Origin: a phage
Strand: one strand, 5' to 3'
DNA length: 64,000 nucleotides
Sequence record: PZ386971.1
This document shows positions 1 through 55,145 of the stretch, piece by piece. The translations under genes were made by a program, and so were the position numbers. The notes beneath the pieces are model-generated. The model was given only the letters and a program-made list of their open reading frames with translations, did no database searches and had not been told where the DNA came from. The stretch's first letter is position 1, and each line of letters opens with the position of its first letter.

Positions 1-592
1 AAGAACGGCTCGCCATATAATCAATAGATCGCAGCACAGGCCAGAGCGGGGTGGCGAACCGCTCTTGAATTCCATACGACGGGTCGATGTCTTCGAACTT
101 GGTGCGCGACTCCAACTGATTGAAGATTGCCTTCGCCATGTCAGAATACGAACCGTCGAGACCGAGGGAGCATCGGATCATGCTGTCCTTATAGGCATCG
201 GTGGTCACCATGTGCAACCAGAATGCTTTCTTGGACGAGCTGTTGGACTCATCAGCTACGCGCCCAACACGCGCTACGCGCAGGGAGAGAGTGGTGTATT
301 CCGAGGCCGCCGGACTCTTGAATGACACCACAACTTCTTCACCACCCAAGATAGGCATTGTGTCAAGAATGTCCCACCCTTCTTTTATCAAGACATTGGC
401 TGTAAGTGATGGAGATGACTTCCCTTCAAGACCCAGATCCTGGAAGACGTTGAACTCCTCAAACAACGCCGTCAGGTCATATGGCGTTGGTGATCCGCCC
501 TGGGGTGTATGAGGGAGTATCGCCATATACTTCAGGTCAAATGTTGTTGACGGTGTTACAATACCGTCTTGGGTCTCTCTGTTTTCGATCAT
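1..592 (-). CDS. hypothetical protein, partial (N-terminal part; gene continues beyond window start)
   Basis: Minus-strand frame open from ATG at 592-590 to position 1 with no stop; ATG overlaps TGA stop of upstream gene (ATGA coupling). Not in ORF track because no stop lies in the window. Confidence 0.45.
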   Translation of the reverse strand, partial: MIENRETQDGIVTPSTTFDLKYMAILPHTPQGGSPTPYDLTALFEEFNVFQDLGLEGKSSPSLTANVLIKEGWDILDTMPILGGEEVVVSFKSPAASEYTTLSLRVARVGRVADESNSSSKKAFWLHMVTTDAYKDSMIRCSLGLDGSYSDMAKAIFNQLESRTKFEDIDPSYGIQERFATPLWPVLRSIDYMASRS

Positions 593-1143
593 TTCGCCAA
601 CTCCTGCTCCAGCTGATTGACAAACGAAGACACATAATCTGGGTCGAGTACTTGGATGTTCCGTTTGGCTTCATTCTTACTGATTGCATCATCATGGTAT
701 GAAACTGCCGTCAGACCATAGTTAGCAATTATGGACGGCTCATCTAGGTCTAGGTTATATGCAAATTTGATAGCACGGGCGTCGGTCACATTGTTGAACT
801 GGTCGACATAATAGGCTGTATCCCACATACCATCGATGCCGTAATCTGCAGTCAGTTCTTCAACAATACGGCGTTCCGGTTTCGGCCAGTCCTTATTGAT
901 GTCCATGATGCCGTTTATCAGACAAGGTATCCAAAACAACTCGAAGGATCCGTAAACGCGTTCTGCGAAAGACCTTGGGGTTTCCCCATCTTGGATCGTA
1001 TACGGCAGGAGAAGTCCTTCGATGTCCTTAATTTTCTGTAAGATCATCACCCGGCGCGTTAAGTTCTGTAACAGCACCTGATCATTCTCTTGGACATCTT
1101 GCAATTGATGCCAAACAAGTGGAAACTTCTCAAAATATTTCAT
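589..1143 (-). CDS. hypothetical protein
   Basis: 184-aa ORF packed 11 nt downstream of the 1155-2123 gene on the same strand. Confidence 0.55.
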   Translation of the reverse strand: MKYFEKFPLVWHQLQDVQENDQVLLQNLTRRVMILQKIKDIEGLLLPYTIQDGETPRSFAERVYGSFELFWIPCLINGIMDINKDWPKPERRIVEELTADYGIDGMWDTAYYVDQFNNVTDARAIKFAYNLDLDEPSIIANYGLTAVSYHDDAISKNEAKRNIQVLDPDYVSSFVNQLEQELAK

Positions 1144-1154
1144 GGCATCCTCTC

Positions 1155-2123
1155 TTAGAAGCTATCGCCTTCGGTTTCAAAGCGCCCTTTGTGTAGAGGC
1201 TCCAGTTCGATGAAGGTCATGTCAACCTGCGTGGACACGATACCATCATCTTTGTGAACCGCGTATGAACTGTCCGGCGTCTCGTTGACGAACATGTTGG
1301 AAAGTACACAAGTGGAGATGCGGTGCAGCCACTGGTTACGCTCCCCATTGACCATGAACGTAATGTCGAATGTTGAAGGATGCAAGTAAAACGCGCTGGA
1401 ATTCTTGTTGTACTTGTACTCTGGGTACATATGCATCTTGAACATGCGGATGATCTCACGGACCATCTTGGCTTCCTTCTGAGATCGCGGCGTGAATTTG
1501 AATGTAAATGGAATCTCACGGTTGCGAACACCCTGGAAGATCATCTCCACATATGGGTTGGTCATGGTGCCTGTGAACAACTCAAGGGTGTCATGAGCGT
1601 TAATGCTCGGCAGGAATGGAATAGCCTCCGACGCAGATTGGATAGCCTTGGTGGCAGCGAATCGCCCCATCTCCTTCCCGACGTTGAGCGCATCACCCAG
1701 TTTAAACTGAGTCATGTCTTGGGCGGCGCGGGAAAGGAACTGTGCCCCCATACCAGCCAGCCCCAGCTCGCTACCGTTCCAGCCAACACCATAGTTGGTT
1801 GTAATGTACTCCGGCATACACAGAACAATAGATTCGTTCGAACGAACGTGACGCGCCCATGCATATTTGGTGATGGAACCAGACTTGGACCCATAGACCA
1901 CAGGAGTATTCCCCAGAGGGTTCTGTATTGGGTTCTCGATAGTCTGAGTAGCCGTGTTGCCATAAGATGAACCGGAGATGCGGTTGATGTTGAATAGGAC
2001 ATAGTGTCCCAAGGTCTTACCCCCAGTAACGTCTAGGGGATAAGACAATTGCTTCTGAGCCTGGGACAATCCCTTCGTGTTCAGAACCTTGATCTTATCG
2101 ATTGTCTTCTTGAAGTCGGCCAT
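1155..2123 (-). CDS. putative late/structural protein (possibly baseplate tail-tube initiator/cap-like; weak)
   Basis: 322-aa ORF; CTAAATAg late-promoter-like motif about 33 nt upstream on the minus strand; size similar to T4 gp54/gp48 but no motif verified. Confidence 0.5.
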   Translation of the reverse strand: MADFKKTIDKIKVLNTKGLSQAQKQLSYPLDVTGGKTLGHYVLFNINRISGSSYGNTATQTIENPIQNPLGNTPVVYGSKSGSITKYAWARHVRSNESIVLCMPEYITTNYGVGWNGSELGLAGMGAQFLSRAAQDMTQFKLGDALNVGKEMGRFAATKAIQSASEAIPFLPSINAHDTLELFTGTMTNPYVEMIFQGVRNREIPFTFKFTPRSQKEAKMVREIIRMFKMHMYPEYKYNKNSSAFYLHPSTFDITFMVNGERNQWLHRISTCVLSNMFVNETPDSSYAVHKDDGIVSTQVDMTFIELEPLHKGRFETEGDSF

Positions 2124-2156
2124 GGTCTCAGCCCTTAAATAGATAGAGTGTTATGG

Positions 2157-2165
2157 CTATTTAGG
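2157..2165 (-). promoter_or_regulatory. candidate late promoter (CTAAATAg) for 1155-2123
   Basis: Minus strand reads cctaaatag, matching the CTAAATAc motif upstream of plus-strand structural genes. Confidence 0.3.
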
Positions 2166-2173
2166 ACTAGATT

Positions 2174-2788
2174 ATGAGCAACTATCTTCAGGGGAAGTAC
2201 ACCCCGGTTAATCCCAAGAAGTATCAGGGGAATGTGAATAACATCATCTTCCGCTCTTCGCTGGAGTTGGTGGCTTTCAAGTTCTGTGATATGAACTCCG
2301 CGATAGTGAAGTGGTCTAGTGAGGAGACCGTAATCCCTTACATTTCCCCAGTCGACGGGCGCACCCATCGTTACTTCATGGACCTCAAGGTCTGGACGCG
2401 CCGTGAAGGGCAAGAGGAACTACAGGTCACCCTCATTGAGATCAAGCCCAAAGACCAGATCAAGCAGCCGAAGAAGACTCCGAACATGAAGGAGTCGACA
2501 TTCAACAATGCGATGCGAACCTGGTTGGTCAATTCTGCCAAGTGGGAGGCCACCCGCGAACTGTGTGCCAAGAAGAACTGGAAGTTCATTATCTGGACCG
2601 AAGAGCATCTTGTTCCAGGTGAAGATCCGGATGTTCGTAAACAGTTTGAGCTGAAGTCGAAAAAGAAACGGGATATGGAGATGCAAGATCGCCGACATGC
2701 CGAACGTGTCAGGGTGCTGAAGGAACAGATGCGGAAGGAGATTAAACCCGCCCCAACGGAGCGGGATGATGGACTTCTATTACCTTAA
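2174..2788 (+). CDS. putative PD-(D/E)XK-type nuclease (lone plus-strand gene in minus-strand block)
   Basis: 204-aa ORF; D...EIK arrangement (MDLKVW...TLIEIKPK) resembles PD-(D/E)XK core; basic Lys/Arg-rich C-terminus. Confidence 0.4.
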   Translation: MSNYLQGKYTPVNPKKYQGNVNNIIFRSSLELVAFKFCDMNSAIVKWSSEETVIPYISPVDGRTHRYFMDLKVWTRREGQEELQVTLIEIKPKDQIKQPKKTPNMKESTFNNAMRTWLVNSAKWEATRELCAKKNWKFIIWTEEHLVPGEDPDVRKQFELKSKKKRDMEMQDRRHAERVRVLKEQMRKEIKPAPTERDDGLLLP

Positions 2789-2793
2789 CTACC

Positions 2794-3006
2794 TTAACTT
2801 CTTTTGTGGCCAGGGGCGTAGCAGGTATGCCTGTCGCGCCCGATTTGCCAGCCGTCTGCTCGCGCCTGTTTGACACAATCACCCCAAGTCTCACCAGTGT
2901 ATTGTTTGAACCCGCACTTGGGGTGATGCTCTTCCCAAGCCCAACTGCATGCCTTGCAATCTGAGCATTCACAATAAAGATCGATGGTGTAACCTGAAAT
3001 GATCAT
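2794..3006 (-). CDS. small Cys-rich putative zinc-binding protein
   Basis: 70 aa with CxC..CxxC plus further Cys/His (CECSDCKAC...HHPKC...HTC). Confidence 0.45.
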   Translation of the reverse strand: MIISGYTIDLYCECSDCKACSWAWEEHHPKCGFKQYTGETWGDCVKQARADGWQIGRDRHTCYAPGHKRS

Positions 3007-3008
3007 AA

Positions 3009-3416
3009 TCAGTCTTCTAGGTGATCGTAGATCTTCTGACGGAACGCATTACCACCAGCACAACCCTTGGCCAGCAGGTGGGTGCCGCCCGTACCGATCA
3101 CGCTGATTGTTGAGAAGCCCAAGATACGGCCTGTGATGGACTGATCAACCTTCACTGTCTCCACCTTACCGATGCGCAACTCATCAGCATCACGACGGAT
3201 GAAACCACGTTTGACGATGACACGCTTATTAGTCACAGCGAATTCAGTTGTCAATACATTTAAAATTGTTGGTATCAGAAATAACAAGCTGAATCCAAAT
3301 GTTGGGATAAACGTTAAAATAACCAGAACGTAAATCCAAAAACCGCTCCACCAGGTCGGGCGGGTGAAGGCAATAACGTGCTCGTCTTTGCCGAGCATAC
3401 GATCTACATAACGCAT
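3009..3416 (-). CDS. membrane protein (bacterial PH-domain-like)
   Basis: 135 aa; two hydrophobic helices followed by a soluble domain. Confidence 0.5.
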   Translation of the reverse strand: MRYVDRMLGKDEHVIAFTRPTWWSGFWIYVLVILTFIPTFGFSLLFLIPTILNVLTTEFAVTNKRVIVKRGFIRRDADELRIGKVETVKVDQSITGRILGFSTISVIGTGGTHLLAKGCAGGNAFRQKIYDHLED

Positions 3417-3426
3417 GATAAATTCC

Positions 3427-3936
3427 TTATTTGTCAGGGTTCACTAAAACAGGGGTGGATACCAGTTCGCCGTTCTTCACAGAATGCTGGACTACAACAA
3501 ACTGATCGACCATGCGATATACTTCAATTCCAGCAGCCAGCATGTCAATAATGCCGTCTATGATACGATATGGTCGGTCATAGAACACTTTAGCGATCTT
3601 GCCACTGTCGATAATACGACGGGTGCACTCTGGGCATGGACTATGAGTGACAAACATCACTAGGCCACAACAGTCTTCAGTGTGCTGGGGGAGTTTGCTC
3701 AGAGCATTCTCCTCGGCGTGGATAACACCCACCGATACCAGTTGACCGTCTACTTCCTTCTCACAGACATTAGGAGCGCCAGGAGCAGTCCCGTTCCAAC
3801 CGATAGACAGGGGCTGGTCAACACGCGGGTCAACGATAACACAGCCGACCTTCAGGCGCTGGGCATAGCTGGACAGGGCGTATGCATGAGCCGAGCGCAT
3901 ATGCGCAAATAACATACGGGGTTTGATAGCCATCAC
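3427..3936 (-). CDS. cd: dCMP deaminase
   Basis: Zinc-binding deaminase motifs HAEENA and PCPEC present in the 169-aa ORF. Confidence 0.85.
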   Translation of the reverse strand: MMAIKPRMLFAHMRSAHAYALSSYAQRLKVGCVIVDPRVDQPLSIGWNGTAPGAPNVCEKEVDGQLVSVGVIHAEENALSKLPQHTEDCCGLVMFVTHSPCPECTRRIIDSGKIAKVFYDRPYRIIDGIIDMLAAGIEVYRMVDQFVVVQHSVKNGELVSTPVLVNPDK

Positions 3937-29175: not shown

Positions 29176-32175
29176 TCAACCTTTCTTCTTTTGCATCATG
29201 GCAAGAAGGTTCACACGGCGCTTGTGCGACCAGCCGACCACGTCAAGGATGGACTGAATCGGGTCAATGAAGGACTTCTCAAAGGCCGCCTGATAATCCA
29301 CCCATTTGCCCAGACCAAGCTCCTCAGGGAAGAACTCAGGATATGCGAAGTAATTCTGGCCGAATGGGTTGCCTGGCTTCAACAACACCATCTGTACCTT
29401 ATCACCCGACTCGATCATCGGTAGACCCAGATCTTCGTTCTTCTCAACCAGACGGTTGTAGCCCACACACGCCTTGGCAGCAAAATGAGCACCAGAGATG
29501 AACGATCCGTCAGCAGCCACACACTTCTCTATGTCGGACACGCCGGAAGCCTTGGCGATATCGTCTACAGAGAGTTTCATGTACTCCTCTTTGTACTGGG
29601 AGATGAGCGCCTGTACTTCCTCTTCAGTGCCGAGTAGGATCTTCTCATAGCACTTGACAAGACGCTCACGACACCATTCCGGCGTGGTGGACTTGCGGGC
29701 TTCCAGACCTTTGAACTTGATCTTCGGCTTCTCGTACTTGATACCCTCACTGTCGTACACGGCCATGGCATACATCTTCTTGGCTCGCCAGACAGCGGCT
29801 GACGCAATGACCTCACGCTCCCATACCATGCGCTGTTCAAATCCGTTCATGGTGTTACACAGAAGCTGTGCCCACTCATTGGTCTTCGGCTGGTAGTTGT
29901 CTTTGATCCATTGGTCGATATTATCAACCATAGCATGATGGTCAGTAACATCAGGCCACAACTGCTTGACAAGACGCTCAATGCAGATGTAGTTGGAGTC
30001 GGTATCACCTGCGATGACGAAGTCCTGGCCTGTTGTACCACACAGCTTGTTCAGATAGTCATCAGTGTAACGCTTGTTCCACTTGTTGATCAGCTGACCG
30101 GATGTGGTGATGGCTTCGGCAATGTTGAGGTTGAAGTACTCTTTGAACCAGACGTTCGAGATAGCGCCATAACCTGCGTTCATCAAGATCTTCAGACCTT
30201 GCTGTAGGGTGTCTTGAGCAACGCCCAGATCTTCCCACTTCTTCATCACTTCGGTCAGTGCATCAAGATCAATGTTCTTGTGCTCTTCATACCACTCTGG
30301 GTCATAGTAGCGAGACTTCATGGCAGACTCAAGATGGAAGTCGCCCTTCGACATCTCTTTACACCAGCCAGCCCACTGCTCATACTTCAGACCCTTGGCC
30401 TTCTCTACTTTACGGTCGCTGTAGATACCACGCATGATTTCAGACAGGAACGACATCTTCTCGTTGCTGAAGAATTGAACGTTCGGCGTGAACGACACGT
30501 TGTAGCGGCGCAGGGTTTCAAAGTGGAACTCACCCAGGGCAACCAACTCATCAACAACCTGCAGGCGTTCGTCAACCGCACGCAACAGCTTGTCGTGAAG
30601 GGCTTTCATCAACCGACGTTTGTGCATCGGCGTTGCCATGTTATTCATCTGAGCAGCCAGCTCTTCACACATAGCCTCAATAATCTCGCGGCGCTGGTGT
30701 TTGTCGCCAACGATAGTCTCTGGACCGAGGTTGTACTGCTGAATGATGTGAGGATACAGGGAATTCAAATCTTCCGAGAAGACCCAGAAGTAGATTCCTG
30801 GTGTCACATCCATGACGTATGCACCCTCAAAGTCGGTCGGACCATCGTATACACGCTGGATCTTAGGCACTATCCCCTTCTCGTACAGGCGATAGTAGCA
30901 CATGGCCAGCCACGGAGCCACAGTGCCCAGACCGTCTTCATAGTTGGACTTGGTGCGGTAGGCCAGGACGAACATCAGCTGGAGCAGGCGCAGCTTCTGT
31001 TCAAGTCGCCATACCAGCTTAACGTCTTTGATACCATATCGGGTGTGTTTGCAGTAGTCGTTGAAGTACAGATCAAAGAGCGACTTGCTCTCACTGTAGT
31101 CCATCTTCTTCTCACCCAGCTCACAATACGCAATCCAGTCAAGAGAGTAGCGTTCACGGGTGGTGTACGTGTGTTTCTTGTAGATCTGCATATAATCGAG
31201 CATAGGACAGCCCACGAACTGATACGTCGTGATATCGCCCTTCTTATCGCGAATGATACGCTTCTTAATGATACCCCAAGGACTGAGGCGCGACGTTTCA
31301 GCCTCACCCAGAACCTGATTCATGCGCTCAACAAGATACGGGCTATCGAACGTTTCAATGTTCCAGCCTGTCCAGCCGTCGAACTGACGCTCCGACCAGA
31401 AGTCAAGGAAAGATCGCAGCAGATCTTGTTCGGTGGTGAACTCCTGATAAACAACCTCAAGGCCGCCGATCTCTTTGTCTTCGGTGTCGTATGCGAATTT
31501 GTTACGATCTTTGGCACAGGGCACACCCCAGACCATGAACTTATTGGTCGCCATATCCTGAAGCTGGATCAGGGTAATGGGGAACGCCGCATTCATGTCT
31601 TGGGTGATCTTGCCGTTGCTGTCAATGATAGGGAACTGATCAGTGACGTTGTTGCTGATGAAAGAACCAGGGAAGTGCTCACGGACAAAGTCATGGTTGG
31701 CCAGCACTTGTTTATGGAAGCGGCGAATGCGCGCCTCATTCCCTTTGAACGTCTGCTGCTCAATAGTTGGGTGAGGGAATGGACCTTTGGTCATCTTTCC
31801 GTCTTTCCACCCGGCGGAGAATACTTCGATATCGAGGTTAGCAATATGGATGTTGGAGTAATCCGGCTCAATCTTTCCAGGAAAGCTATGGGCGATGAAC
31901 TGGTATGCATAATCGGTCTGCCCATAAATGGCAGCACCCTGGACTTCCTTGTACTCTTCAAGATAGTTGTCAGCGTCACGCATGGAAGGGAACTGCTTGG
32001 CTACCAGGGGTTCATTGAGAAGGCCGACCTTTTCAACATTTGAATAGTCAGCCGTGGGTAAATAGAGAGTGGGTTCGAATTTCTTTTTCAACAGACGGCG
32101 ATTACCCATGTCATCTGCAATTCGAATCAACAGGTCATTGCCCCTGCGGGCAACGTTCGTATAGAAAACGGTCAT
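29176..32175 (-). CDS. DNA polymerase, family B (T4 gp43-like)
   Basis: 999-aa ORF with exonuclease NLDIEV motif and polymerase motif C (IAGDTDS). Confidence 0.9.
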   Translation of the reverse strand: MTVFYTNVARRGNDLLIRIADDMGNRRLLKKKFEPTLYLPTADYSNVEKVGLLNEPLVAKQFPSMRDADNYLEEYKEVQGAAIYGQTDYAYQFIAHSFPGKIEPDYSNIHIANLDIEVFSAGWKDGKMTKGPFPHPTIEQQTFKGNEARIRRFHKQVLANHDFVREHFPGSFISNNVTDQFPIIDSNGKITQDMNAAFPITLIQLQDMATNKFMVWGVPCAKDRNKFAYDTEDKEIGGLEVVYQEFTTEQDLLRSFLDFWSERQFDGWTGWNIETFDSPYLVERMNQVLGEAETSRLSPWGIIKKRIIRDKKGDITTYQFVGCPMLDYMQIYKKHTYTTRERYSLDWIAYCELGEKKMDYSESKSLFDLYFNDYCKHTRYGIKDVKLVWRLEQKLRLLQLMFVLAYRTKSNYEDGLGTVAPWLAMCYYRLYEKGIVPKIQRVYDGPTDFEGAYVMDVTPGIYFWVFSEDLNSLYPHIIQQYNLGPETIVGDKHQRREIIEAMCEELAAQMNNMATPMHKRRLMKALHDKLLRAVDERLQVVDELVALGEFHFETLRRYNVSFTPNVQFFSNEKMSFLSEIMRGIYSDRKVEKAKGLKYEQWAGWCKEMSKGDFHLESAMKSRYYDPEWYEEHKNIDLDALTEVMKKWEDLGVAQDTLQQGLKILMNAGYGAISNVWFKEYFNLNIAEAITTSGQLINKWNKRYTDDYLNKLCGTTGQDFVIAGDTDSNYICIERLVKQLWPDVTDHHAMVDNIDQWIKDNYQPKTNEWAQLLCNTMNGFEQRMVWEREVIASAAVWRAKKMYAMAVYDSEGIKYEKPKIKFKGLEARKSTTPEWCRERLVKCYEKILLGTEEEVQALISQYKEEYMKLSVDDIAKASGVSDIEKCVAADGSFISGAHFAAKACVGYNRLVEKNEDLGLPMIESGDKVQMVLLKPGNPFGQNYFAYPEFFPEELGLGKWVDYQAAFEKSFIDPIQSILDVVGWSHKRRVNLLAMMQKKKG

Positions 32176-34232: not shown

Positions 34233-34376
34233 GTTGGGTTCCTCAGTGGGTTAGCCATATGGGGTATTTAGGCTTCCCGCTTGGCGAGGTCTGGTTTGTA
34301 CAGGACGCCTCTCGGAAATATTGGAGGAAGGTTTTCATAGATACCCCACACGGATTGTATGGGGTATTCAGGAGGG

Positions 34377-44417: not shown

Positions 44418-44452
44418 CCTAGATGAAACGAACACATTTAGGGGTATTTGAA

Positions 44453-47400
44453 ATGGCTAATAAACCAACACAGCCTGTTTTCCCTCTCGGTCTGGTGGCT
44501 GAAGAGCAGTCTACTTTGGCTGGTGTCGTCAACAAGGGTACGATTGAGCATGGACCAGATGCTGTCCTGACTTTACCCGAGGGTAATGCCAGCGCAGGAC
44601 TCCCGTCTTCCGTTCGCTACAATGCCGACTCCGACGAATTTGAGGGCTTCTATGAAAATGGTGGATGGTTGCCGCTGGGTGGCGGTGGTATCCGCTGGGA
44701 AGTCCTTCCGCATGCCTCTACGGTAATGCTCACTGAAGGGCGAGGCTATCTCATTAATAATACCACAGGGGCATCTACAGTGGTTCTCCCTTCCCCTACG
44801 CGTATTGGGGATTCCGTTACTATTTGTGATGCTTATGGGAAATTTGCCACTTACCCATTGACCGTGTCTCCTTCTGGAAATAATTTGTATGGCTCCACTG
44901 AAGACATGGCTATAACAACTGATAACGTATCAGCAACGTTCACTTGGTCTGGGCCTGAACAAGGTTGGATTATTACATCCGGCGTCGGTCTTGGCCAAGG
45001 CCGTGTCTACAGTCGTGAAATCTTTACAAAAATTTTGGCGTCTGAAACAAGTACTGTCACTCTCAATACTCCACCAACAATCGTGGACGTGTATGCTGAC
45101 GGAAAACGCCTTGCGGAATCCAAATATTCACTAGATGGGAATGTAATCACTTTCAGTCCTTCTTTGCCAGCCAGCACAGAACTTCAGGTGATTGAATATA
45201 CTCCTATTCAATTGGGTAATGGCGGTGGTTCTAGTTCTTCTACGATTACTTGGGTCTATAATGGGGGTTCAGCGATTGGCGGTGAAACCGAAATCACGTT
45301 GGACGTCGTTGTTGATGATGTTCCGGCCATTGATATAAACGGAAGTCGTCAGTATAAAAATCTGGGATTCACATTCGATCCATTAACCAGTAAAATCACT
45401 CTGGCGCAAGAACTGGAACCAGAAGATGAAGTTGTTGTAATTATCAATGGAACACCAAACATCTATAATCAAATTGATCATACTTTGCGGGAAGTGGCTC
45501 GTGTAACCAATGTTAAAGATACAGAGGTCGTTTATTTTAGTGTTGGTGCTGTGCTAAGCGGGTATAAAGTTATCTATGATAAAGTAACACAGAGATCATA
45601 TTTTATTCCAGAGCTACCGACTGGAACCACGGCAGTCAGCCTTAGTTCTTCGGCTGTACTTGTGCATTCTGCTGGTAGTGTTGATCTGGGCGCATTAGCC
45701 GTATCTCGTGAGGAGTATGTGACCTTACCTGGTTCATTCGATACAGGTGTAACTGTTAATACCAAGAATGAGTTGGTTGTGAGTAACGATATTAAATATC
45801 GTTGGGATGGTTCTGTACCCAAAGTAGTCCCTCCAGAATCTACCCCATTGGGTACAGGAGGTGTTGGTCCAGGGGCATGGCTTGTAGTTGGTGTTGTTGG
45901 ATTAGAGCAACGTTTAGCCTCCTGGAAAGGTTCTTCTCTTATTGATTCCGGTAGTCTGTCTCTTTACAAAAAGAGCGGTGTATTCGGTGATGGTGGGAAT
46001 GTATCCGATAAATATCAGGTTGTTCTACATTCAGATGGGTTCTGGTACAAGTACAATGGGACACTACCTGTTAGTTATGGTGCTGCCCCAGACTCTTCTT
46101 GGACTAACGTTGGTAAGCTAACAGGGTTTAATGAACACTCACCTGAGAATTTTGGTGCAATCCCCAATGACCCTAGTTTTGACTGTTTACCTGCTATAAA
46201 ACTAGCTATAGCCACAGGTACATTAAATCTGAATGGGAATTCTACCTACCACGTAACGGATGAGGTTGTTATACCTTCTTACTTACGTGGGAATCTAAAC
46301 GGGGCAACAATTAAAGCAATTGGCTCCGTATGGCCTACGTTAAAAGCTGTTGTACGCGTTAGTAAATTTCCTGTCGGTACAGCAACAGTGGATGTGGCTA
46401 ATACAGAGAATCAAGTGCGAGGATTACGCTTAATCGGTAGCTTAAACGTAGACTGTGCAGATATTGCATCATATGGTTTTTATGCACGTCTTCTGTGTGC
46501 AGAATCTGAGATGGGTAGCATCTATGCATATAATGCTAATAGATATGGCATTGTAATGTTTGCTTGCTGGTATTTTCAAATGGGCACTCTCCATGCAAAC
46601 AACTGTGCAAGGGGTATGGCATTAGGTTATTCAACAGAAGGTGAGCAAGGGGATACCTATGTGAATGCTACACACTTCCCTCACATTAGTGCATGGGGTA
46701 CTGATAAGTCTACGGGACTAGGTTATGACCCAATCACGGATGATGCGAGTAAATATACAATAGGTGCTGGTATTATCTTAGGTCGTGGTTTGTCTACCAG
46801 TGTTGGTGTGATTTGCTCTGAGAATACGGCAGGTGCTGGGGTAGTAACAATGGACCCTGCTGCGTGGGACATTGGGGTCATGTACTGTGAGGGTAATAGT
46901 AAAGACTTTACTCAAGAGGGTGAACCCAAGGTGTCATTGCTGTCATCCAAGGCCAACAGTGAAAGTCATACGCTTACCATCTCCACACTCCACCTTTCCG
47001 CAGGTTGTGGCATTTTAACCAGAAGCAATCAAGAGCGTGTGCTAATCAGAAGTCTATATCGCTTTGATAACGCAAAAACCTTCCACTCTTACTGCACAGC
47101 AGACACAGTAGAGGTTGGTAGCAGCAACTACTATGTACTTAACGGGCATAATTACAATGCACCTGCTGCACTTATTAAGGAACCGCTCAATGTAGACTTT
47201 GTGCGTTCAGGGTTGACTTTAAGTGAGTGGACATCTACAGTTATCGGTCATTTTGCTGGTAGTACAGCAGAACAACAGCTTTATGTTAAGCTCCCAGCAA
47301 GTCCCAGCGGCCTAGATTTACAGATAGATAGTGAGGATGGGACGGAATATATCACTGTAACTGGTACAGATTTTAAAGTCTCTCTAACTAAGAAAAGATT

Positions 47401-47506
47401 GCCTAGTAAACTGTATGAGATAAGGATTGGTGGGGTGTCTACAGTAGCTGTTACCGATTGTTCTATTCTAGTCAGAAGTAAAAAAGGTGATTGGTATTAC
47501 TGGTAG
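44453..47506 (+). CDS. tailspike protein A (N-terminal anchor region, shared ~130-aa module, beta-helix-like C-terminal part)
   Basis: Start set at MANKPTQ downstream of promoter and leader hairpin; shared module at about aa 375-510. Confidence 0.65.
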   Translation: MANKPTQPVFPLGLVAEEQSTLAGVVNKGTIEHGPDAVLTLPEGNASAGLPSSVRYNADSDEFEGFYENGGWLPLGGGGIRWEVLPHASTVMLTEGRGYLINNTTGASTVVLPSPTRIGDSVTICDAYGKFATYPLTVSPSGNNLYGSTEDMAITTDNVSATFTWSGPEQGWIITSGVGLGQGRVYSREIFTKILASETSTVTLNTPPTIVDVYADGKRLAESKYSLDGNVITFSPSLPASTELQVIEYTPIQLGNGGGSSSSTITWVYNGGSAIGGETEITLDVVVDDVPAIDINGSRQYKNLGFTFDPLTSKITLAQELEPEDEVVVIINGTPNIYNQIDHTLREVARVTNVKDTEVVYFSVGAVLSGYKVIYDKVTQRSYFIPELPTGTTAVSLSSSAVLVHSAGSVDLGALAVSREEYVTLPGSFDTGVTVNTKNELVVSNDIKYRWDGSVPKVVPPESTPLGTGGVGPGAWLVVGVVGLEQRLASWKGSSLIDSGSLSLYKKSGVFGDGGNVSDKYQVVLHSDGFWYKYNGTLPVSYGAAPDSSWTNVGKLTGFNEHSPENFGAIPNDPSFDCLPAIKLAIATGTLNLNGNSTYHVTDEVVIPSYLRGNLNGATIKAIGSVWPTLKAVVRVSKFPVGTATVDVANTENQVRGLRLIGSLNVDCADIASYGFYARLLCAESEMGSIYAYNANRYGIVMFACWYFQMGTLHANNCARGMALGYSTEGEQGDTYVNATHFPHISAWGTDKSTGLGYDPITDDASKYTIGAGIILGRGLSTSVGVICSENTAGAGVVTMDPAAWDIGVMYCEGNSKDFTQEGEPKVSLLSSKANSESHTLTISTLHLSAGCGILTRSNQERVLIRSLYRFDNAKTFHSYCTADTVEVGSSNYYVLNGHNYNAPAALIKEPLNVDFVRSGLTLSEWTSTVIGHFAGSTAEQQLYVKLPASPSGLDLQIDSEDGTEYITVTGTDFKVSLTKKRLPSKLYEIRIGGVSTVAVTDCSILVRSKKGDWYYW

Positions 47507-47860: not shown

Positions 47861-50290
47861 ATGATTTCTCAATTCAATCAACCACGCGGCTCCACTTCCA
47901 TAGAAGTTAACAAACAATCTATCGCTCGAAATTTCGGTGTCAAAGAAGACGAAGTCGTTTATTTCACTGCTGGTATTGATCTCAGTGGATTTAAAGTAAT
48001 TTATAATGAGTCTACCCAACGGGCTTATTCTCTTCCTTCAGGTATTGTTTCAGGAACGACTGCGATAAGTCTGGATAAAAGAGCTATCCTCACTCATTCA
48101 GCGGGTTCTGTTGATCTTGGGGAATTAGCAGTAAGCCGCGAAGAATACGTAACCTTACCTGGTTCATTTGATACTGGTGTAACTGTTAATACTAAGAATG
48201 AATTAGTTGTCTTTACCGATGGTAAGTATCGCTGGGATGGGGCACTGCCTAAAGAAGTGCCTGCTGGTTCAACCCCTACATCAACCGGTGGTGTTGGAAC
48301 AGGTGCATGGGTTAGTGTTGGTGATGCGAGTTTGAGGTCAATAGCTCAATACAGAGCCAATACCATTGAAGATTTAAAATCATTGCCATTTGCGGTTGGA
48401 GATATTGTTAATGTCGCTGGGTATTATGATGTTTTTGATGGGGCACAGCATTACCGAGTGATTAGTGGTACAGATGATGGAACAGGGGTTCAGCTCAATA
48501 ATGGTTTGTGGGCAAATATTATCATTAATGGCGATGCTTGTGTAGATTGGTTTGGCGCTAAAGGTGATGGTGTTGCAGATGACTGGTGGGCAATCAATAA
48601 AGCTATTAACGCCTCGCTCTCTACCGATTATCAGGGTGGTTGGTGGGAGACGTCAAGTAGAAACCCTAAATTTAAAGTTAGACTTAGTAGACGCTCTTAC
48701 AGAATCACTAAACAGATTTTACTACCCCCTTACATAGAGTTTTATGGTATGGGTTCGCGCTGGTATTTTTCGGGTGATAATAATTCTCGCTTAATCCCTG
48801 ATTTTGATAATCCGTTGCAATTCGCTGTGAAATCTGCTAGCTATATTGTTGAAACCGGTGAACTAGCACCTGAGGGGTGGTATTCTGGGGTGGTTTGGGT
48901 TGACCCAAAAAAACTAACGACTTGTCATGGTATTAAAACTTATGGATATAGCATCGAACCAACAAAACAAATTTTAGGCGGTATAAGACTGATAGCGAGT
49001 CCAATTTCTCATGTATACGATATATTCATAACAAATGTTGATTTTGGAGTTTTACTGAATTGTTCATGGGTGAGTAAGGTTGACGTTAAAACTCATCATA
49101 ATAAATGCGGGGTTATGTCTAGTCATGATGGTAATAACACTCACGTGGATGGTTATTTTACAGGGACAGAAATCAAACCGCTTGATGGTAATCCTTACCT
49201 CAACCCAATAGAGTCTTTAGACTCTACAACAGGGCTCCAAGACCAATCTATATCTGACCCAGACAGTAAAATAGGTGTGATTTTTTATTGGTCACAGGGG
49301 TCAACAAGTACGAATATGACGTGTGAGGGTAACACTATTTCGTTGGCTGTGGCTAAGGGTGGTGCTGATGTAAGGTGTTTATACTCAGAACGTAATTCAG
49401 ATTGTACATTTACTGGGTACAGTTCACTAGTTACAATTGGTGAAATAACTGGCATTGGTGACGGTGGAACTTTTGAGCTTGGTGTAAATAATACTATTTC
49501 GTTAGACAAAGACACTCAGTATGGTGTCGCTAAACGATTTAAGTACGTGAGCGAGTGGGGTAATAAGCTGTTTATGCCCTCTAGCTGGAAAGAATACACC
49601 AAAGGTTGTTTAGTTGAAGGGTTTGATTATAGCGAAATTTTTGTAGATGCGATAAATGGAGATGACACCAATGTTGGCTCCAGTCTTCACCCTGTGAAAA
49701 CTTTGGAGAGAGCTCTAACGCTTGTGAATTCAGTGTATACTACATCTGACTTGCTAAGCTCAGTGCCGAGGGATAGAGTAATAAAGTTAGTAGGCTCAGC
49801 AACATACTACCCAGACGGACAGCATAGGTTCGTGGGCGGCTCGTTAAAAATTACAAAAGCTGATAACTCACGACCGACTGTTAATTTATCAAAACCAATC
49901 CGATTTAACGACACATCCCTAGTATTTGAGGAAGTAAATTTAGTGCGACCAACAGATGACCACGGGAATAATGAGAATGGCGCAATTTTCCTTGAGGATG
50001 GGTGTAATGAAGTCAGATTGAAAAACTGCGATCTAAGTCTACAAAAATTCAGCTTCTTATATCCTACTTGGGGCTTTGCTGGAATATGTACCTTGGTGTT
50101 AAACGGGGTTAGTGTTACTGGTGATTCAACAACAAGAATGATACAAACAGCTGATGGATATCATGATTTGCACTTGTTTAATGTAATTAGCTACGAGACA
50201 ACTTACACTGGAGGAATAGAGTCAAGACCAGATAAAGGCTATGATATACCAGCAGATAGACGTGGTCATATATTGGGTGTATCAATATAA
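47861..50290 (+). CDS. tailspike protein B (shared N-terminal module + pectate-lyase-like beta-helix)
   Basis: Shared module at aa 20-150; WFGAKGDGVADDWWAINKAI resembles the beta-helix depolymerase entry motif. Confidence 0.65.
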   Translation: MISQFNQPRGSTSIEVNKQSIARNFGVKEDEVVYFTAGIDLSGFKVIYNESTQRAYSLPSGIVSGTTAISLDKRAILTHSAGSVDLGELAVSREEYVTLPGSFDTGVTVNTKNELVVFTDGKYRWDGALPKEVPAGSTPTSTGGVGTGAWVSVGDASLRSIAQYRANTIEDLKSLPFAVGDIVNVAGYYDVFDGAQHYRVISGTDDGTGVQLNNGLWANIIINGDACVDWFGAKGDGVADDWWAINKAINASLSTDYQGGWWETSSRNPKFKVRLSRRSYRITKQILLPPYIEFYGMGSRWYFSGDNNSRLIPDFDNPLQFAVKSASYIVETGELAPEGWYSGVVWVDPKKLTTCHGIKTYGYSIEPTKQILGGIRLIASPISHVYDIFITNVDFGVLLNCSWVSKVDVKTHHNKCGVMSSHDGNNTHVDGYFTGTEIKPLDGNPYLNPIESLDSTTGLQDQSISDPDSKIGVIFYWSQGSTSTNMTCEGNTISLAVAKGGADVRCLYSERNSDCTFTGYSSLVTIGEITGIGDGGTFELGVNNTISLDKDTQYGVAKRFKYVSEWGNKLFMPSSWKEYTKGCLVEGFDYSEIFVDAINGDDTNVGSSLHPVKTLERALTLVNSVYTTSDLLSSVPRDRVIKLVGSATYYPDGQHRFVGGSLKITKADNSRPTVNLSKPIRFNDTSLVFEEVNLVRPTDDHGNNENGAIFLEDGCNEVRLKNCDLSLQKFSFLYPTWGFAGICTLVLNGVSVTGDSTTRMIQTADGYHDLHLFNVISYETTYTGGIESRPDKGYDIPADRRGHILGVSI

Positions 50291-50740
50291 ATAATTGATA
50301 TTATGCTTCATGGTGATTGTGGGTGATTCACCCACGATTACTTTTAGGTACTACAGTTGATAATTCAGATTGATACATTGGATTGGCAGGTGCGTGTAAT
50401 ACTGCACTTGAATTTTGATACATAAATCCGGCACCCTCCCTCACCCTCAACGCGCCCAATTGCCCCCATAGGAGGCTCATTACCTCCTTGTGGGCTTTGT
50501 TGTTTTTGTGGCTGCTGTTGCTGACTACATTCTATGTATGGATGTATCTCATCATACTAAGCATTATCTAAGAGCCATCCTATGATACGACCCCATTGGG
50601 ATTCCTAACTTCACAACTACGGTAATATTATGAATTAATCAGGTGAACTGCTCCTAGTCAGACTGGAGGAACGATTGAAGACTCTGTTTGATAATCAGGC
50701 AAGGGATAGATAGGATCGTGGTTTTGGAGAGTAAAATCAA

Positions 50741-50832
50741 AACCCCTCTTCGGCGGGTTCTTGTTATACCTTTGTTCATAAATTTATTAGTTCAGACTAA
50801 ATACCCCATATTGGCAAATCCTCTATGGGGTA
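50741..50832. repeat. repeated cassette-boundary module, copy 2
   Basis: Near-duplicate of 47763-47857 immediately upstream of tailspike C. Confidence 0.6.
50797..50805 (+). promoter_or_regulatory. candidate late promoter (CTAAATAcc)
   Basis: Followed by leader hairpin taccccata...tatggggta and ATG 50841. Confidence 0.4.
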
Positions 50833-50840
50833 TCTTCAAA

Positions 50841-53177
50841 ATGACCAGAAACGTCGAGAGCATCTTTGGAGCGGTCGTAACAGCTCCGCACCAGATTCCA
50901 TACACTTACACAGCAACGGGTGGAGAGAAGTTTATCTCCCTCCCTTTCTACCCTGTCACTGGTATAGTCACAATCAACGGTGGCATGCAAGTTCCGTTAG
51001 ACAACTTTGAAATCGATGGAAATACGTTGAATCTCGGACGCGCATTATCCAAAGGTGACGTTGTGTTCTGTCTGTTTGATAAGATTCTGTCTCCAGAAGA
51101 TTATAAAACCGGGGTTCGAATCTATAAGTTTCAGGCTATAGGAGGTGAAACCGAGTTCACTCCTGATTACACATATTATGGAGTCCAATCTCTTTATATC
51201 GGTGGTGAGTACAAAACACCCGAAATTGAATATTCCTATGACAGCACGACAGGGAAAGTGTCTTTACAAACTGCGCTGACTGCAGGCGTTTGGGTAGTCG
51301 CTGAAATGTCTGTTAAACAACCGAATATCAGTCCGTTGTTTGACCGAAGTATTCAAGAAATCGCCCGTTCAACTAATGTAAAAGATTCTGAAGTAATCCT
51401 TAGTACGGATACTTCTCAGGTACTTAATGGTAAGAAAATTATTTACTCTGTTAATGAGCAGAAGTCTTATGGTTTACCGGTATTACCTACTAACGTTTAT
51501 ATTCAGTCTGTTGTTAACGGGAAGCTCACATACAATCCTGGTTCTGTGGTTGTAGATTTACTCTCTGTACCAAGTGAAGCACTTGAAGCAGTTAATTTAA
51601 TTAAAACCAATTTACTTAGTGAATCGGGTGCATCTTTGGTTGGGTATACAAAACCCTATACTGGTGCAGTTAAACGTCTTGCTTCTGATTACTTTAATCA
51701 GGAGATTAACGTTGATGACTTTGGTGCATACGGTGATGCATATCTTCTTAACGGCACTGTAAACCCAAATCGCCATGATGACTCTGCTGCATTCCAGAAG
51801 GCATTGATTGCTGCTTATCGAATTGGTGGTGCTAAGGTTGTAGCTACTCCTTGGAAGAGTTATTACATTGCCAACAAGGTATATGTACTAGCTTCCGAGT
51901 CCGGTTCCGATATTGAAGCACCAGTTTTCCCTAAACGTCGTATCCAGTTAATTGATTTACAGGGTGCTACCATTGTTGGACAGGATGATACATCTAACAC
52001 CAGTAATGTGTTTATGGAGACAGGCTATATTACTAGTACTGGTTCTGTAGCTTCCGTATTTGGTAAAGGTGAGGAAGAGTATTTAACCATTGGTACATGT
52101 GTGCGAAATGCTACGCTGGTAAATTTCTACCAAGGCTTCCGTTTCCGTGACCATGTTTTTGGTTGTGAACTTACCGATATTGTAGGACAAGATGTGCAGC
52201 AGCTTCTTTATACTCGTCGCTGTTTCTACTCGCTGTACCGTAACTTACAATGCAATGGTAGTTTTACTACTGGCTTGCATCGTTATGACATTGGGGATGA
52301 AGTGAATATTCAGCCTCTGATTTCGGTCCATACTGGCGAGTGTGACGTAGGTATTAAGTTCACTGGGGCAGTTGAAGCACTGACTCTCTTTAACTGTGGT
52401 ATTGAAAGTTTCCGCACACATGGAGTATGGATTGCTGGTGCTTACAATATTAAGTTCGATTCTTGTTACTTTGAATCGAATCACCCTAATGTGTACGGTT
52501 GTATCGCTACCAGTGCTAATAACATTACATTGGATAATAACTGGATTTATGGTTCATCTTTTAAGATGTTCGGTGGGTTTGATGACAACACTAATGTCAG
52601 AATGCACCCTAATAACCGTATAGGGGGTGGAGCAGTTTGGTGGGATCTTAATGAAGGCTCCCCTTATAACTTATCTGACTTACACTTCCCTACTGACATA
52701 AAAGCTGGTGGTAATACCTTACCCGTAGTTAGTGCCAAGGAAGCTAGTACTGTAAACCAGACTATTACTTTCTATGACCCTAATTTAGGTTTGTCCTCAA
52801 TAGTTGGTAAAGCAGAGCAAACTAACCGTTTCCACCCACAACGAGTAAATGGTCAGATGAGCATCGGTAGTACTGCATCTTATACAGTTGGTGCATCTAC
52901 AACCACTGAAGTAGTTGGAAATGATACCCGAGTTAAGTGGACTACCCAAATAAGATATTCTGATACACAGTTACTGTATGTAGCACTTAAGGTAGATAAC
53001 AACTTAGGAACCTGGTTCTGGTTAGGCCATGTTGTAGGTGATACAGCTAAAGCCTTACTTACCAGTGATGAAAACAAACCCCCTGTAGTTACTAATGAAA
53101 ATGGTTATGTAACTATAACCAGTCCACTACTTGCTACCCCTATTGCAATTCATGGTGGTGAGATTCGTATACTGTAA
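50841..53177 (+). CDS. tailspike protein C (divergent copy of shared module + beta-helix-like domain)
   Basis: Start set at ATG 50841 downstream of promoter (track ORF began at 50688); DDFGAYGDAY...SAAFQKALIAA motif. Confidence 0.6.
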   Translation: MTRNVESIFGAVVTAPHQIPYTYTATGGEKFISLPFYPVTGIVTINGGMQVPLDNFEIDGNTLNLGRALSKGDVVFCLFDKILSPEDYKTGVRIYKFQAIGGETEFTPDYTYYGVQSLYIGGEYKTPEIEYSYDSTTGKVSLQTALTAGVWVVAEMSVKQPNISPLFDRSIQEIARSTNVKDSEVILSTDTSQVLNGKKIIYSVNEQKSYGLPVLPTNVYIQSVVNGKLTYNPGSVVVDLLSVPSEALEAVNLIKTNLLSESGASLVGYTKPYTGAVKRLASDYFNQEINVDDFGAYGDAYLLNGTVNPNRHDDSAAFQKALIAAYRIGGAKVVATPWKSYYIANKVYVLASESGSDIEAPVFPKRRIQLIDLQGATIVGQDDTSNTSNVFMETGYITSTGSVASVFGKGEEEYLTIGTCVRNATLVNFYQGFRFRDHVFGCELTDIVGQDVQQLLYTRRCFYSLYRNLQCNGSFTTGLHRYDIGDEVNIQPLISVHTGECDVGIKFTGAVEALTLFNCGIESFRTHGVWIAGAYNIKFDSCYFESNHPNVYGCIATSANNITLDNNWIYGSSFKMFGGFDDNTNVRMHPNNRIGGGAVWWDLNEGSPYNLSDLHFPTDIKAGGNTLPVVSAKEASTVNQTITFYDPNLGLSSIVGKAEQTNRFHPQRVNGQMSIGSTASYTVGASTTTEVVGNDTRVKWTTQIRYSDTQLLYVALKVDNNLGTWFWLGHVVGDTAKALLTSDENKPPVVTNENGYVTITSPLLATPIAIHGGEIRIL

Positions 53178-53228: not shown

Positions 53229-55145
53229 ATGAACGAAATGTTCTCACAAGGTGGTAAAGGCTCCACTGGTATTCTTACCAATAAACAAGCCATTGCTCGT
53301 AAGTTTGGTGTTAAGCAGAACGAAGTAGTTTACTTTTCTGTAGGAGTAGACTTGGGTGGATACAAAGTCATTTATGATAAGGCTACTCAACGTGCTTACT
53401 CACTACCTGCAAATATTGCCCCAGGTACTATTGCTACTAGTCTTAGTGCTAATGCTGTACTTGTTCATTCAGCTGGTTCTGTAGATCTTGGGGAATTAGC
53501 CGTATCTCGTGAAGAATACGTTACATTGTCTAGGTCGTTTGACACTGGTGCTACACTTAATGTTAAAAATGAATTGCTTACCCATACAACAGGTAAGTAT
53601 CGCTGGGATGGCGAGTTACCTAAAACCGTTTCTTCTGGCTCAACTCCTGAAAGTGCTGGTGGTACTGGGTTAGGCAAATGGGTTAGTGTTGGTGATGCAG
53701 CCTTGAGAATCAATCTTGCATCTGATGATGGCGCTGGTCTGGTCGGATTTAAGTCACCTCTGGCCAACTCCATTAAGCGAACACTACATGATAAAAATAA
53801 AGACCTGGTGTCAGTCAAGGACTTCGGGGCTGTTGGCGACGGTGTGACCGATGATACCGCCGCGTTTCAGGCAGCAATAGATTCGAAAAAGAGTTTATAC
53901 ATACCGGATGGTATTTATCTTATAAGCTCTACTTTAATCATAACTGCCACTGATAGTCTATGTATTGTTGGTAATAGTTTTGGACATGTTAATGACCAAA
54001 CAACAGGTTCAGTAATTAAGTTTACCGGGTTAGCGTCACCCGCCATTCGGGTTCAAGGTGGTGCGATAGGAGCTAAGATTTCTGGACTTTTTCTGGATAT
54101 CCAGGATTCATCATCTGATGGCTTTGATTTCGGTGGGGCTTGGTATTTAAAACTTCAAGATTGCGTTGTCAGAAACGCTCGATATGGGGTCTATTTACAT
54201 TACGATAGCCCAGACTATTTTTCCGGAGTAGCTGAACTAACTTCATGCTATTTCGCTAAATGTGCAAATGGTGTAAAAACGTCAAAGGTAGATATCAACG
54301 TAGTTAAAGTTGATAATTGTACTTTCTTTGATGGTGTTAACGGTGTTCTTATCGGAGACTCAGGTACTGCAAGTAGTGTACGAAATTTCATAGTCAGAGA
54401 CTCTCTATTTGAAGCAAACACGGGCTATGACGTAGGTGTTGTCGCCGGGGGTGCACAGCAGTTACTGGTAGATGGTAACTACTTTGAAGAGAATACTGCT
54501 TCTTCTTTAGCCAGGGTATATGTTACAGATGATAGTCACTCACCGCGTTCTTCTTCTGTTTCAATAACCAACAACACGTTTAGCAAAGATACGACAGGCG
54601 ATCTTATTTTCCTGTCTGGTATTTCCGGTGTTCTTGTTAAACAAAACTGGTCAGCATTTGGGGGTATAGGTTTTGTAAGGGCTATTAATATCGACAATTA
54701 TGAGATAGATAGATGCTCTACCGTATCTGGAGCAACAGCCTGTAATGTTGTTATAGATAACGTCTTACAAGTACCTGACACTTCTGTTAATAAGATTTAT
54801 ATTAACAAGGCCCAAGAATACGCGTTTATCGGGACTTCCGTCGTAAAAAGGTCGAGTGCATGTACACGGGCAATGATCAATTTTAATGGAATTTCGGGGT
54901 CGTCAGTGTATGCGGATGGAGCAACTGTAACTAAAACCGGGACCGGTAAATATACCGTCAACCTATCTAATACTATGCCCTCCTCTGCTTATGCTGTTTT
55001 ATGCAGTGTTGGCAATACCACTAGCGGAGGGAAATTAGTAATTAATGTCGTAAGTACATCCCCTGACTCTTTTAACTTAGAAGTTTTTGACCTTTCTGGA
55101 TCGTATCAAGATTCAGGATACATATCTGCCGCAGTTGTTATGTAA
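53229..55145 (+). CDS. tailspike protein D (shared N-terminal module + pectate-lyase-like beta-helix)
   Basis: Shared module at aa 20-150; VKDFGAVGDGVTDDTAAFQAAIDS beta-helix entry motif. Confidence 0.65.
   Translation: MNEMFSQGGKGSTGILTNKQAIARKFGVKQNEVVYFSVGVDLGGYKVIYDKATQRAYSLPANIAPGTIATSLSANAVLVHSAGSVDLGELAVSREEYVTLSRSFDTGATLNVKNELLTHTTGKYRWDGELPKTVSSGSTPESAGGTGLGKWVSVGDAALRINLASDDGAGLVGFKSPLANSIKRTLHDKNKDLVSVKDFGAVGDGVTDDTAAFQAAIDSKKSLYIPDGIYLISSTLIITATDSLCIVGNSFGHVNDQTTGSVIKFTGLASPAIRVQGGAIGAKISGLFLDIQDSSSDGFDFGGAWYLKLQDCVVRNARYGVYLHYDSPDYFSGVAELTSCYFAKCANGVKTSKVDINVVKVDNCTFFDGVNGVLIGDSGTASSVRNFIVRDSLFEANTGYDVGVVAGGAQQLLVDGNYFEENTASSLARVYVTDDSHSPRSSSVSITNNTFSKDTTGDLIFLSGISGVLVKQNWSAFGGIGFVRAINIDNYEIDRCSTVSGATACNVVIDNVLQVPDTSVNKIYINKAQEYAFIGTSVVKRSSACTRAMINFNGISGSSVYADGATVTKTGTGKYTVNLSNTMPSSAYAVLCSVGNTTSGGKLVINVVSTSPDSFNLEVFDLSGSYQDSGYISAAVVM

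Follow-up and report, generated by a model that had tools for sequence, protein, structure and literature searches.

A T4 gp4-like gene of an Ackermannviridae phage, probably encoding a head completion nuclease of the PD-(D/E)XK superfamily

Gene 4 of bacteriophage T4 is included in the core gene set of T4-like phages (PMC2993671). Its product was predicted by Feder and Bujnicki in 2005 to adopt a PD-(D/E)XK nuclease fold, and the same authors proposed that T4 gp4 checks or cleaves DNA upon tail attachment (PMC1189080). A later paper by Iyer et al. (PMC7824862) cites Benler et al. 2020 (Virology 543:7) for the requirement of a DNase activity, non-specific in kind, in T4 gp4. Two further nucleases can be compared with this protein. 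One is TnsA of the transposon Tn7 (PDB 1f1z and 1t0f), a transposase subunit. The other is T7 endonuclease I, which has the PD-(D/E)XK fold too and was an equally good template for gp4 in the study of 2005 (PMC1189080).

The gene described here occupies positions 2174-2788 (+) of the 64,000 nt of phage DNA that were analysed (sequence record PZ386971.1; hereafter the window). With a probability that we put at about 0.88, it is the Ackermannviridae ortholog of T4 gp4, a PD-(D/E)XK head completion nuclease that would act in head-tail joining. As such the gene is already known, being the well-known and universally conserved core gene for gp4, and its only lineage-specific feature is a basic tail of 58 aa. 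The protein is homologous to T4 gp4 across the whole catalytic domain of 146 aa, where it has the same E/D/E-x-K residues and the same fold. As in T4-type phages, it is encoded by a core gene that lies divergently next to baseplate genes. However, T4 gp4 stops at 150 aa, whereas the window protein adds the 58-aa basic helical extension, which ends in DDGLLLP. In addition, T4 gene 4 heads a 4-2-3 gene string, while gp4 of the window stands alone on its strand, and no homologs of gp2 or gp3 were found by tblastn within the 64-kb window.

The likeness to Tn7 TnsA is confined to the N-terminal catalytic domain, which is common to both proteins as judged from Pfam (PF08722) and from structural matches, and the identity is only ~15%. 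E63, D114 and K132 of TnsA correspond to E31, D70 and K91 of gp4, whereas Q130 of TnsA is replaced by E89. gp4 has no Pfam match to the C-terminal domain of TnsA, and its own C-terminus is a single basic helix. Its neighbours are baseplate and nucleotide-metabolism genes instead of tnsB, tnsC and tnsD, and gp4 would be a phage morphogenesis enzyme, unlike the transposase subunit TnsA. As to T7 endonuclease I, it was not among the top matches in fold searches with the gp4 model.

Position and identity of gp4

Over its first 6 kb, the window is 97-98% identical to the Escherichia phages PC3, PH4, vB_EcoM-ZQ1 and A221, ~94% to Shigella phage Ag3 and ~91% to Salmonella phage SKML-39. It comes from a phage of the Ackermannviridae (Aglimvirinae), where the near-identical A221 is classified. 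Phages of this kind are not strictly T4-like, yet they have the T4 morphogenesis gene set in common with T4. The features of the locus are collected in Table 1.

All real genes neighbouring gp4 in the window are on the minus strand. The original prediction had described gp4 as alone on the plus strand within the first 32 kb. This holds in substance, since the equivalent region of the annotated phage A221 (97.5% identical) adds before ~32 kb just two small plus-strand calls, one a hypothetical CDS of 38 aa and the other a CDS of 66 aa in overlap with the DNA polymerase gene. The same prediction had placed gp4 inside a minus-strand operon, and this part has to be corrected: the gene sits where a late baseplate unit meets an early/middle block for nucleotide metabolism and replication. 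The DNA polymerase of the window is encoded by one ORF of 999 aa (29176-32175, minus strand). That of A221 (L009:30528-33992) is annotated as two CDSs ~400 bp apart, and a small CDS on the plus strand overlaps the first of them. The cause could be an insertion or a frameshift, or else a difference in annotation.

On its other side, gp4 meets the 70-aa ORF. The pattern C..C..C..C...HH..C in the product of this ORF looks like that of a small zinc-binding protein; the ORF is left without annotation in A221 and called hypothetical in Se-B, Ds25CZ and IME250. Where the two genes converge, the window has a 9-bp tandem duplication, TACCTTAAC x2. The close relatives A221 and Ds25CZ have a single copy of TACCTTAAC, in which the two genes meet at TTAA, and in Ds25CZ the annotated counterparts of gp4 and the 70-aa ORF overlap by 4 nt. 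In the window, each copy of TACCTTAAC provides one of the two stop codons, and both proteins are unaltered.

The identity of the gene is clear from profile and sequence searches. Residues 3-148 match PHROG 218, 'head closure', at E = 8.3e-58 (profile positions 2-143 of 148), and BLASTP against gp4 of Tequatrovirus teqskov gives 38% identity over residues 6-146 (E = 8e-30). A search of NCBIfam with gp4 returned no family. By tblastn, gp4 homologs were found in 2545 phage records, annotated as 'head completion protein', 'gp4' or 'head closure', and the hosts of these phages include Escherichia, Synechococcus, Klebsiella, Salmonella, Vibrio, Aeromonas, Acinetobacter, Campylobacter, Rhizobium and Caulobacter. 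In phages near-identical to the window, the gene is annotated as 'head completion protein', and the UniRef name of close homologs is 'Head completion nuclease'. gp4 of the window is thus an ortholog of T4 gp4.

Table 1. Positions of gp4, its parts, its neighbours and the signals discussed in the text (positions refer to the window unless a record is given)
Feature	Position	Strand	Remarks
gp4-type head completion nuclease CDS (probable)	2174..2788	+	ORF with ATG start, 204 aa + stop; PHROG 218
gp4 Shine-Dalgarno sequence	2163-2166	+	AGGA, 7 nt 5' of ATG
Conserved catalytic domain, residues 1-146	2174..2611	+	TnsA-like PD-(D/E)XK fold
E31 codon	2264..2266	+	acidic residue of helix 1 (RSSLELVAF); counterpart TnsA E63
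D70 codon	2381..2383	+	'D' of PD-(D/E)XK; counterpart TnsA D114
E89-I-K91 codons	2438..2446	+	(D/E)XK motif; counterpart TnsA Q130-V-K132
Lineage-specific basic extension, residues 147-204	2612..2785	+	helix 152-189; conserved DDGLLLP in the disordered end
Divergent control region gp48(-)/gp4(+), 50 bp	2124..2173	.	CTAAATA, TTAAATA, AGGA
CTAAATA before gp48	2164..2158	-	34 nt from gp48 start; overlaps gp4 ribosome-binding site
TTAAATA	2135-2141	+	one mismatch to CTAAATA; 32 nt 5' of gp4 ATG
CTAAATA copies	2158-2164, 34265-34271	-	
CTAAATA copies	40544, 44409, 47821, 50797, 55406, 61917, 61957	+	
Terminator-like hairpin	2765..2747	-	CCCGCTCCGTTGGGGCGGG then TTTAATCT; antisense within tail-coding end of gp4
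Hairpin plus U-run, Maynard	L010:1816-1848	-	annotated terminator
Hairpin plus U-run, further genus	L006 ~2085-2130	-	
gp53-like baseplate wedge subunit	589-1143	-	neighbour gene
gp48-like baseplate tail-tube cap	1155-2123	-	neighbour gene
70-aa ORF	2794-3006	-	Cys/His-rich; PHROG 926; converges on gp4
bPH_2 membrane protein	3009-3416	-	neighbour gene
dCMP deaminase	3427-3936	-	neighbour gene
9-bp tandem duplication	2781..2798	.	TACCTTAAC x2; convergent stops of gp4 (+) and 70-aa ORF (-)
GIY-YIG gene, Salmonella phage Se-B	L003:2761-3501		
GIY-YIG gene, Dickeya phage Ds25CZ	L007:1520-2257		

Fold, active site and proposed role

The original prediction had noticed a D...EIK arrangement in the protein and compared it with PD-(D/E)XK nucleases, and it had suggested a profile search for nuclease families. 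This search was run and did find one: the single Pfam match of gp4 is PF08722, Tn7_TnsA-like_N, the N domain of TnsA-like endonucleases, covering the full profile (positions 1-85) at E = 1.1e-17, with a score of 64.7 bits against a gathering cut-off of 26.5. An AlphaFold2 model built from an alignment of 109 sequences has a mean pLDDT of 87, rising above 90 in the core. With this model, Foldseek ranks Tn7 TnsA (1f1z, 1t0f) at the top of the PDB (E = 3e-4, probability 1.0), and the best matches among predicted viral structures are models of 'Head completion nuclease' (TM 0.80-0.88). Searches of the PDB by sequence found nothing meaningful, either with the single protein or with a profile of 25 sequences, so that no gp4 structure was detectable there.

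Conservation is concentrated on the residues expected for this fold. In the alignment of 109 homologs, Y56, Y67, D70 and E89 are invariant, and E31, E50 and K91 are conserved in at least 90%. In a smaller alignment of 25 sequences E31 is invariant, and the columns of D70 and E89-I-K91 are invariant or nearly so. The window protein has all of E31, E50, D70, E89 and K91. For TnsA, Hickman et al. are said to have identified E63, D114 and K132 as the catalytic residues in 2000. When the 109-sequence profile was aligned by hhalign to the single TnsA sequence (identical to 1f1z_A in 272 of 273 residues), MDLKV was paired with TDFLV and IEIKP with IQVKP at a weak score (probability 5%, E = 0.007), and this register places D70 on D114, E89 on Q130 and K91 on K132. 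E31 is paired with E63 of TnsA in a local (Smith-Waterman) alignment, in which SSLELVAF falls on SDLELAVF. This alignment is not significant overall, scoring 41 against 32.5 +/- 5.8 for shuffled sequences, and it is mis-registered in the middle; it was used for the SSLELVAF/SDLELAVF helix only. Since D70, E89 and K91 align with D114, Q130 and K132 of TnsA, the D...EIK arrangement is a real catalytic motif, D70...E89-I-K91, which together with E31 is near-invariant in the 109 homologs.

By its fold, gp4 would belong to the PD-(D/E)XK superfamily as a small metal-dependent DNase with a catalytic domain of the TnsA type, and E31, D70, E89 and K91 would form the active site. By homology with T4 gp4, it would act late in infection, after headful packaging. 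The putative nuclease would then act on the packaged or protruding DNA end, and this would make the filled heads competent for tail joining. Nuclease activity and a part in head-tail joining are known from the T4 literature and would carry over to the window protein at 38% identity. Because of the orthology and the conservation of the active site, the same role as that of T4 gp4 is assigned here with high confidence.

The annotation 'head closure' may also be understood in a structural sense. gp4 would then be a neck protein that has kept the nuclease fold and lost cleavage, and that plugs or decorates the portal with its basic tail in contact with the DNA end. Indeed, the long basic helix could touch DNA in the portal channel, and historic T4 genetics put gene 4 under head completion without a known enzyme activity (PMC1189080). 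However, a degenerate enzyme is not expected, because the catalytic residues are invariant or nearly so in 109 diverse homologs, and the DNase activity of T4 gp4 is reported as required (PMC7824862). The proteome of CsCl-purified virions of Sajous1, a Kuttervirus, speaks against a structural part as well. It has no entry for a 'head completion protein' and none for gp57/gp58, a number guessed from the genome position, whereas gp54-56 (hub, wedge and tube cap), which come from the same locus, were detected (PMC10892097). This proteome is weakly consistent with a transient enzymatic rather than a structural role. With no matching entry in the Sajous1 virion, the structural sense of 'head closure' is unsupported, and we regard it as improbable.

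A different target for the putative nuclease is also conceivable. Like T7 endonuclease I, gp4 might resolve branches or junctions and clear branched intermediates of replication or recombination during packaging, rather than process DNA ends for tail joining. T4 gene 4 is not known to be needed for packaging itself, and this counts against such a task. What T4 gene 4 is needed for are the final steps of head completion and head-tail attachment (PMC1189080), and debranching in T4 is done by gp49, or Endo VII (PMC2993671). Some observations do agree with junction cleavage: T7 endonuclease I was a best template for gp4 alongside TnsA in the work of Feder and Bujnicki (PMC1189080), resolvases of the Hjc type have the same fold, and the activity of T4 gp4 is reported as non-specific by Iyer et al. 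(PMC7824862). On balance, a junction-resolving gp4 is very improbable, and processing of the DNA end remains the preferred role.

Synteny and the homing gene beside gp4

A small, lone and oppositely oriented gene with a nuclease fold may be either a free-standing homing endonuclease or a moron that was acquired recently, as the original prediction had supposed. Such a gene would spread by cleaving alleles that do not have it, and it would be sporadic among relatives. A blastn search was made with the 2262-bp region of gp48, gp4, the 70-aa ORF and bPH_2 as query. It found 349 records, 270 of which match the query colinearly across 80% of its length or more, and the order in these 270 is gp48(-), gp4(+), 70-aa ORF(-), bPH_2(-) and dCMP deaminase(-). 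When 60 records were sampled evenly down the ranking of the 349, gp4 was present in all of them. Records with gp4 at 60% identity or more number 279, and those with gp48 at 80% or more number 282. The region search and a protein search with gp48 agree for the phages of Salmonella (164 and 164 records, respectively), Escherichia (29 and 29), Dickeya (19 and 19) and Serratia (10 and 10), and they give 45 and 44 records for those of Klebsiella.

The arrangement of gp48(-) and gp4(+) followed by minus-strand genes also occurs in Kuttervirus, Taipeivirus, Limestonevirus and Vibrio phages of 157 kb, and Vibrio phage K368 has an identical gp48/gp4 arrangement. Of the DNA of this segment, little more than the N-terminal half of gp4 can still be aligned with the Vibrio phages. 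Furthermore, in the one T4-type phage examined, gp53(-) is divergent from gp4(+), which is followed by gp2(+) and gp3(+). Because gp4 diverges from the baseplate gene gp53 there too, the opposite orientation is not peculiar to the genome of the window. The composition of gp4 is native: its GC content is 50.4% and its GC3 65.9%, compared with 50.3% and 63.8% for gp48, and the DNA polymerase gene is like both. In searches of Pfam and PHROG, gp4 had no match to the homing families GIY-YIG, HNH, LAGLIDADG, His-Cys box, EDxHD and Vsr-like PD-(D/E)XK.

There is a genuine homing gene at this locus in related phages, and it is a different one. In the Kuttervirus phages Se-B, Det7, PhiSH19, KFSST3, SenALZ1 and selz, a gene of ~740 bp lies between gp48 and gp4 on the strand of gp4, and the Limestonevirus phages Ds9CZ, Ds16CZ and Ds25CZ of Dickeya, probably also XF4, have a ~740-bp insert at the same place. 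The inserted gene encodes a Seg-like homing endonuclease (GIY-YIG + NUMOD3), with 73% identity between Kuttervirus and Limestonevirus. Its GC content is 36-41%, against 45-51% in its neighbours, that is, 8-10 points lower. The inserted gene uses the ribosome-binding site and the ATG that originally belonged to gp4, and in Se-B it has taken the first four gp4 codons as well. At its 3' end the inserted gene provides a new ribosome-binding site, and gp4 restarts there from a GGAGGAAAGC(A/G)TAATG junction. In the window the GIY-YIG gene is absent, and the 50-bp spacer between gp48 and gp4 is uninterrupted. In position, strand, sporadic occurrence and low GC content, this Seg-like gene is what had been imagined for gp4, but it is a different gene with a different fold.

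The check for presence/absence polymorphism proposed with the original prediction thus has two answers. Polymorphism does exist at the locus, but it concerns the GIY-YIG neighbour, while gp4 itself is present in every relative sampled. Likewise, gp4 is universally conserved at its position, as had been named as evidence against mobility, but the absence of a nuclease fold, named together with it, was not what was found. That the gp48-gp4 locus is truly a homing site in relatives, with a GIY-YIG gene inserted, lends the idea of a mobile gp4 some initial appeal. Several observations stand against it. gp4 occurs at the same place in every family member sampled, and in 2545 phage records overall; its composition is native, whereas the real homing gene is lower in GC than its neighbours by 8-10 points; its ortholog in T4 is a core morphogenesis gene; and its divergent orientation is common to a T4-type phage. 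Universal synteny of gp4 refutes the idea, and the chance that gp4 is a homing endonuclease or a recent moron is practically negligible.

The basic tail and the transcription signals

The basic tail that had been noticed in the sequence is confirmed: residues 147-204 form a stretch of 58 aa with 28% K+R and a net charge of +3, predicted to consist of one long helix (152-189) and a disordered end. gp4 proteins of T4-type phages and cyanophages have 144-150 aa and no such tail, whereas those of Ackermannviridae have 57-61 extra residues, with the pattern VPG(E/Q)DP(D/E)V+K+F..KSKKKRE....DRRRA.RV..LKE.M+KE....(R)DDGLLLP. Identity in the tail is below that in the core, e.g., 62-69% versus 80-85%, and both ends of the tail are conserved. 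Homologs from Vibrio phages and metagenomes have shorter basic tails that are unrelated in sequence. Since unrelated basic tails recur in this way, a generic role in binding DNA or another polyanion is suggested. Most likely, the tail would either help the enzyme to bind DNA non-specifically, as a polyanion, or serve to dock it at the portal or neck. DDGLLLP was also considered as a shared partner-binding motif, e.g., for a sliding clamp, and this was rejected, as no other real ORF of the window ends similarly; the DNA polymerase of the window ends in ...NLLAMMQKKKG.

The 50-bp region between the start codons of gp48 and gp4 has signals for both directions. The heptamer CTAAATA, in its wider form CTAAATA(c/t)c.., occurs nine times in the window, against 4.6 +/- 2.0 copies expected by chance. 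Eight of the nine copies stand before a co-oriented ORF, ~25-50 nt upstream of its ATG, and the ninth (61957-61963) falls just inside an ORF. The genes that follow CTAAATA are mostly late structural genes, namely those for four tailspikes, a baseplate wedge protein and gp48. An extended form, CTAAATAcCcc, is a reported regulatory motif of an Ackermannviridae phage (PMC7283392). With its copy of CTAAATA upstream on the minus strand, gp48 has its own late promoter. Within the control region, the block CTATTTAGGA is invariant in the eight phages compared, including a Vibrio phage. The four consecutive tailspike/tail-fibre genes of the window lie on the plus strand at 44423-47506, 47861-50290, 50688-53177 and 53229-55145. 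GC3 is 31-35% in the two of them that were measured, versus ~60-66% in core genes, consistent with horizontally exchanged receptor-binding modules.

For gp4 itself, the plus-strand TTAAATA is kept in the clade of the window and not in the other genera among the same eight phages, and no clear conserved promoter of gp4 was found in the control region across them. A scan of 1900-3500 for sigma-70-like promoters found none for gp4. We propose that gp4 forms a transcription unit of its own that starts in the 50-bp region, divergently to gp48, and infer that it is expressed late.

The coding region of the tail also has signals on the opposite strand. The terminator-like hairpin near the end of gp4 is conserved in sequence in Aglimvirinae only, and a scan for terminators gave two sites against 1.1 expected, which is near chance. 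Nevertheless, different minus-strand elements of a hairpin plus a U-run are found inside the tail-coding region of gp4 in three genera, and the fold z-scores of the hairpins in this region are -1.5 to -2.5. These hairpins may stop early/middle minus-strand transcripts that converge on gp4 and would otherwise continue, antisense to it, into the late gp48 unit.

The two features of the tail could be combined in one idea, that the Ackermannviridae-specific basic helix with its DDGLLLP or SLLP end is an adaptor tethering the nuclease, and that its coding segment is a landing pad for antisense terminators. As a whole we consider this rather unlikely. If it is true, the adaptor tail, by holding the nuclease at the portal, neck or DNA end, would give it a regulated, site-restricted action that is missing in T4 gp4, and the antisense terminators would insulate the late baseplate unit from converging early/middle transcripts.

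For the annotation of these genomes, the proper label of the gene is 'head completion nuclease (T4 gp4-like)', and it belongs with the core morphogenesis genes of an Ackermannviridae phage rather than among mobile elements. The finding has little importance beyond annotation, and the points for specialists are the family-specific basic C-terminal extension and the homing site between gp48 and gp4. Homing of a Seg-like GIY-YIG endonuclease gene into the gp48-gp4 spacer recurs in the sister genera, and the window represents the natural 'empty site' allele (2124-2173).
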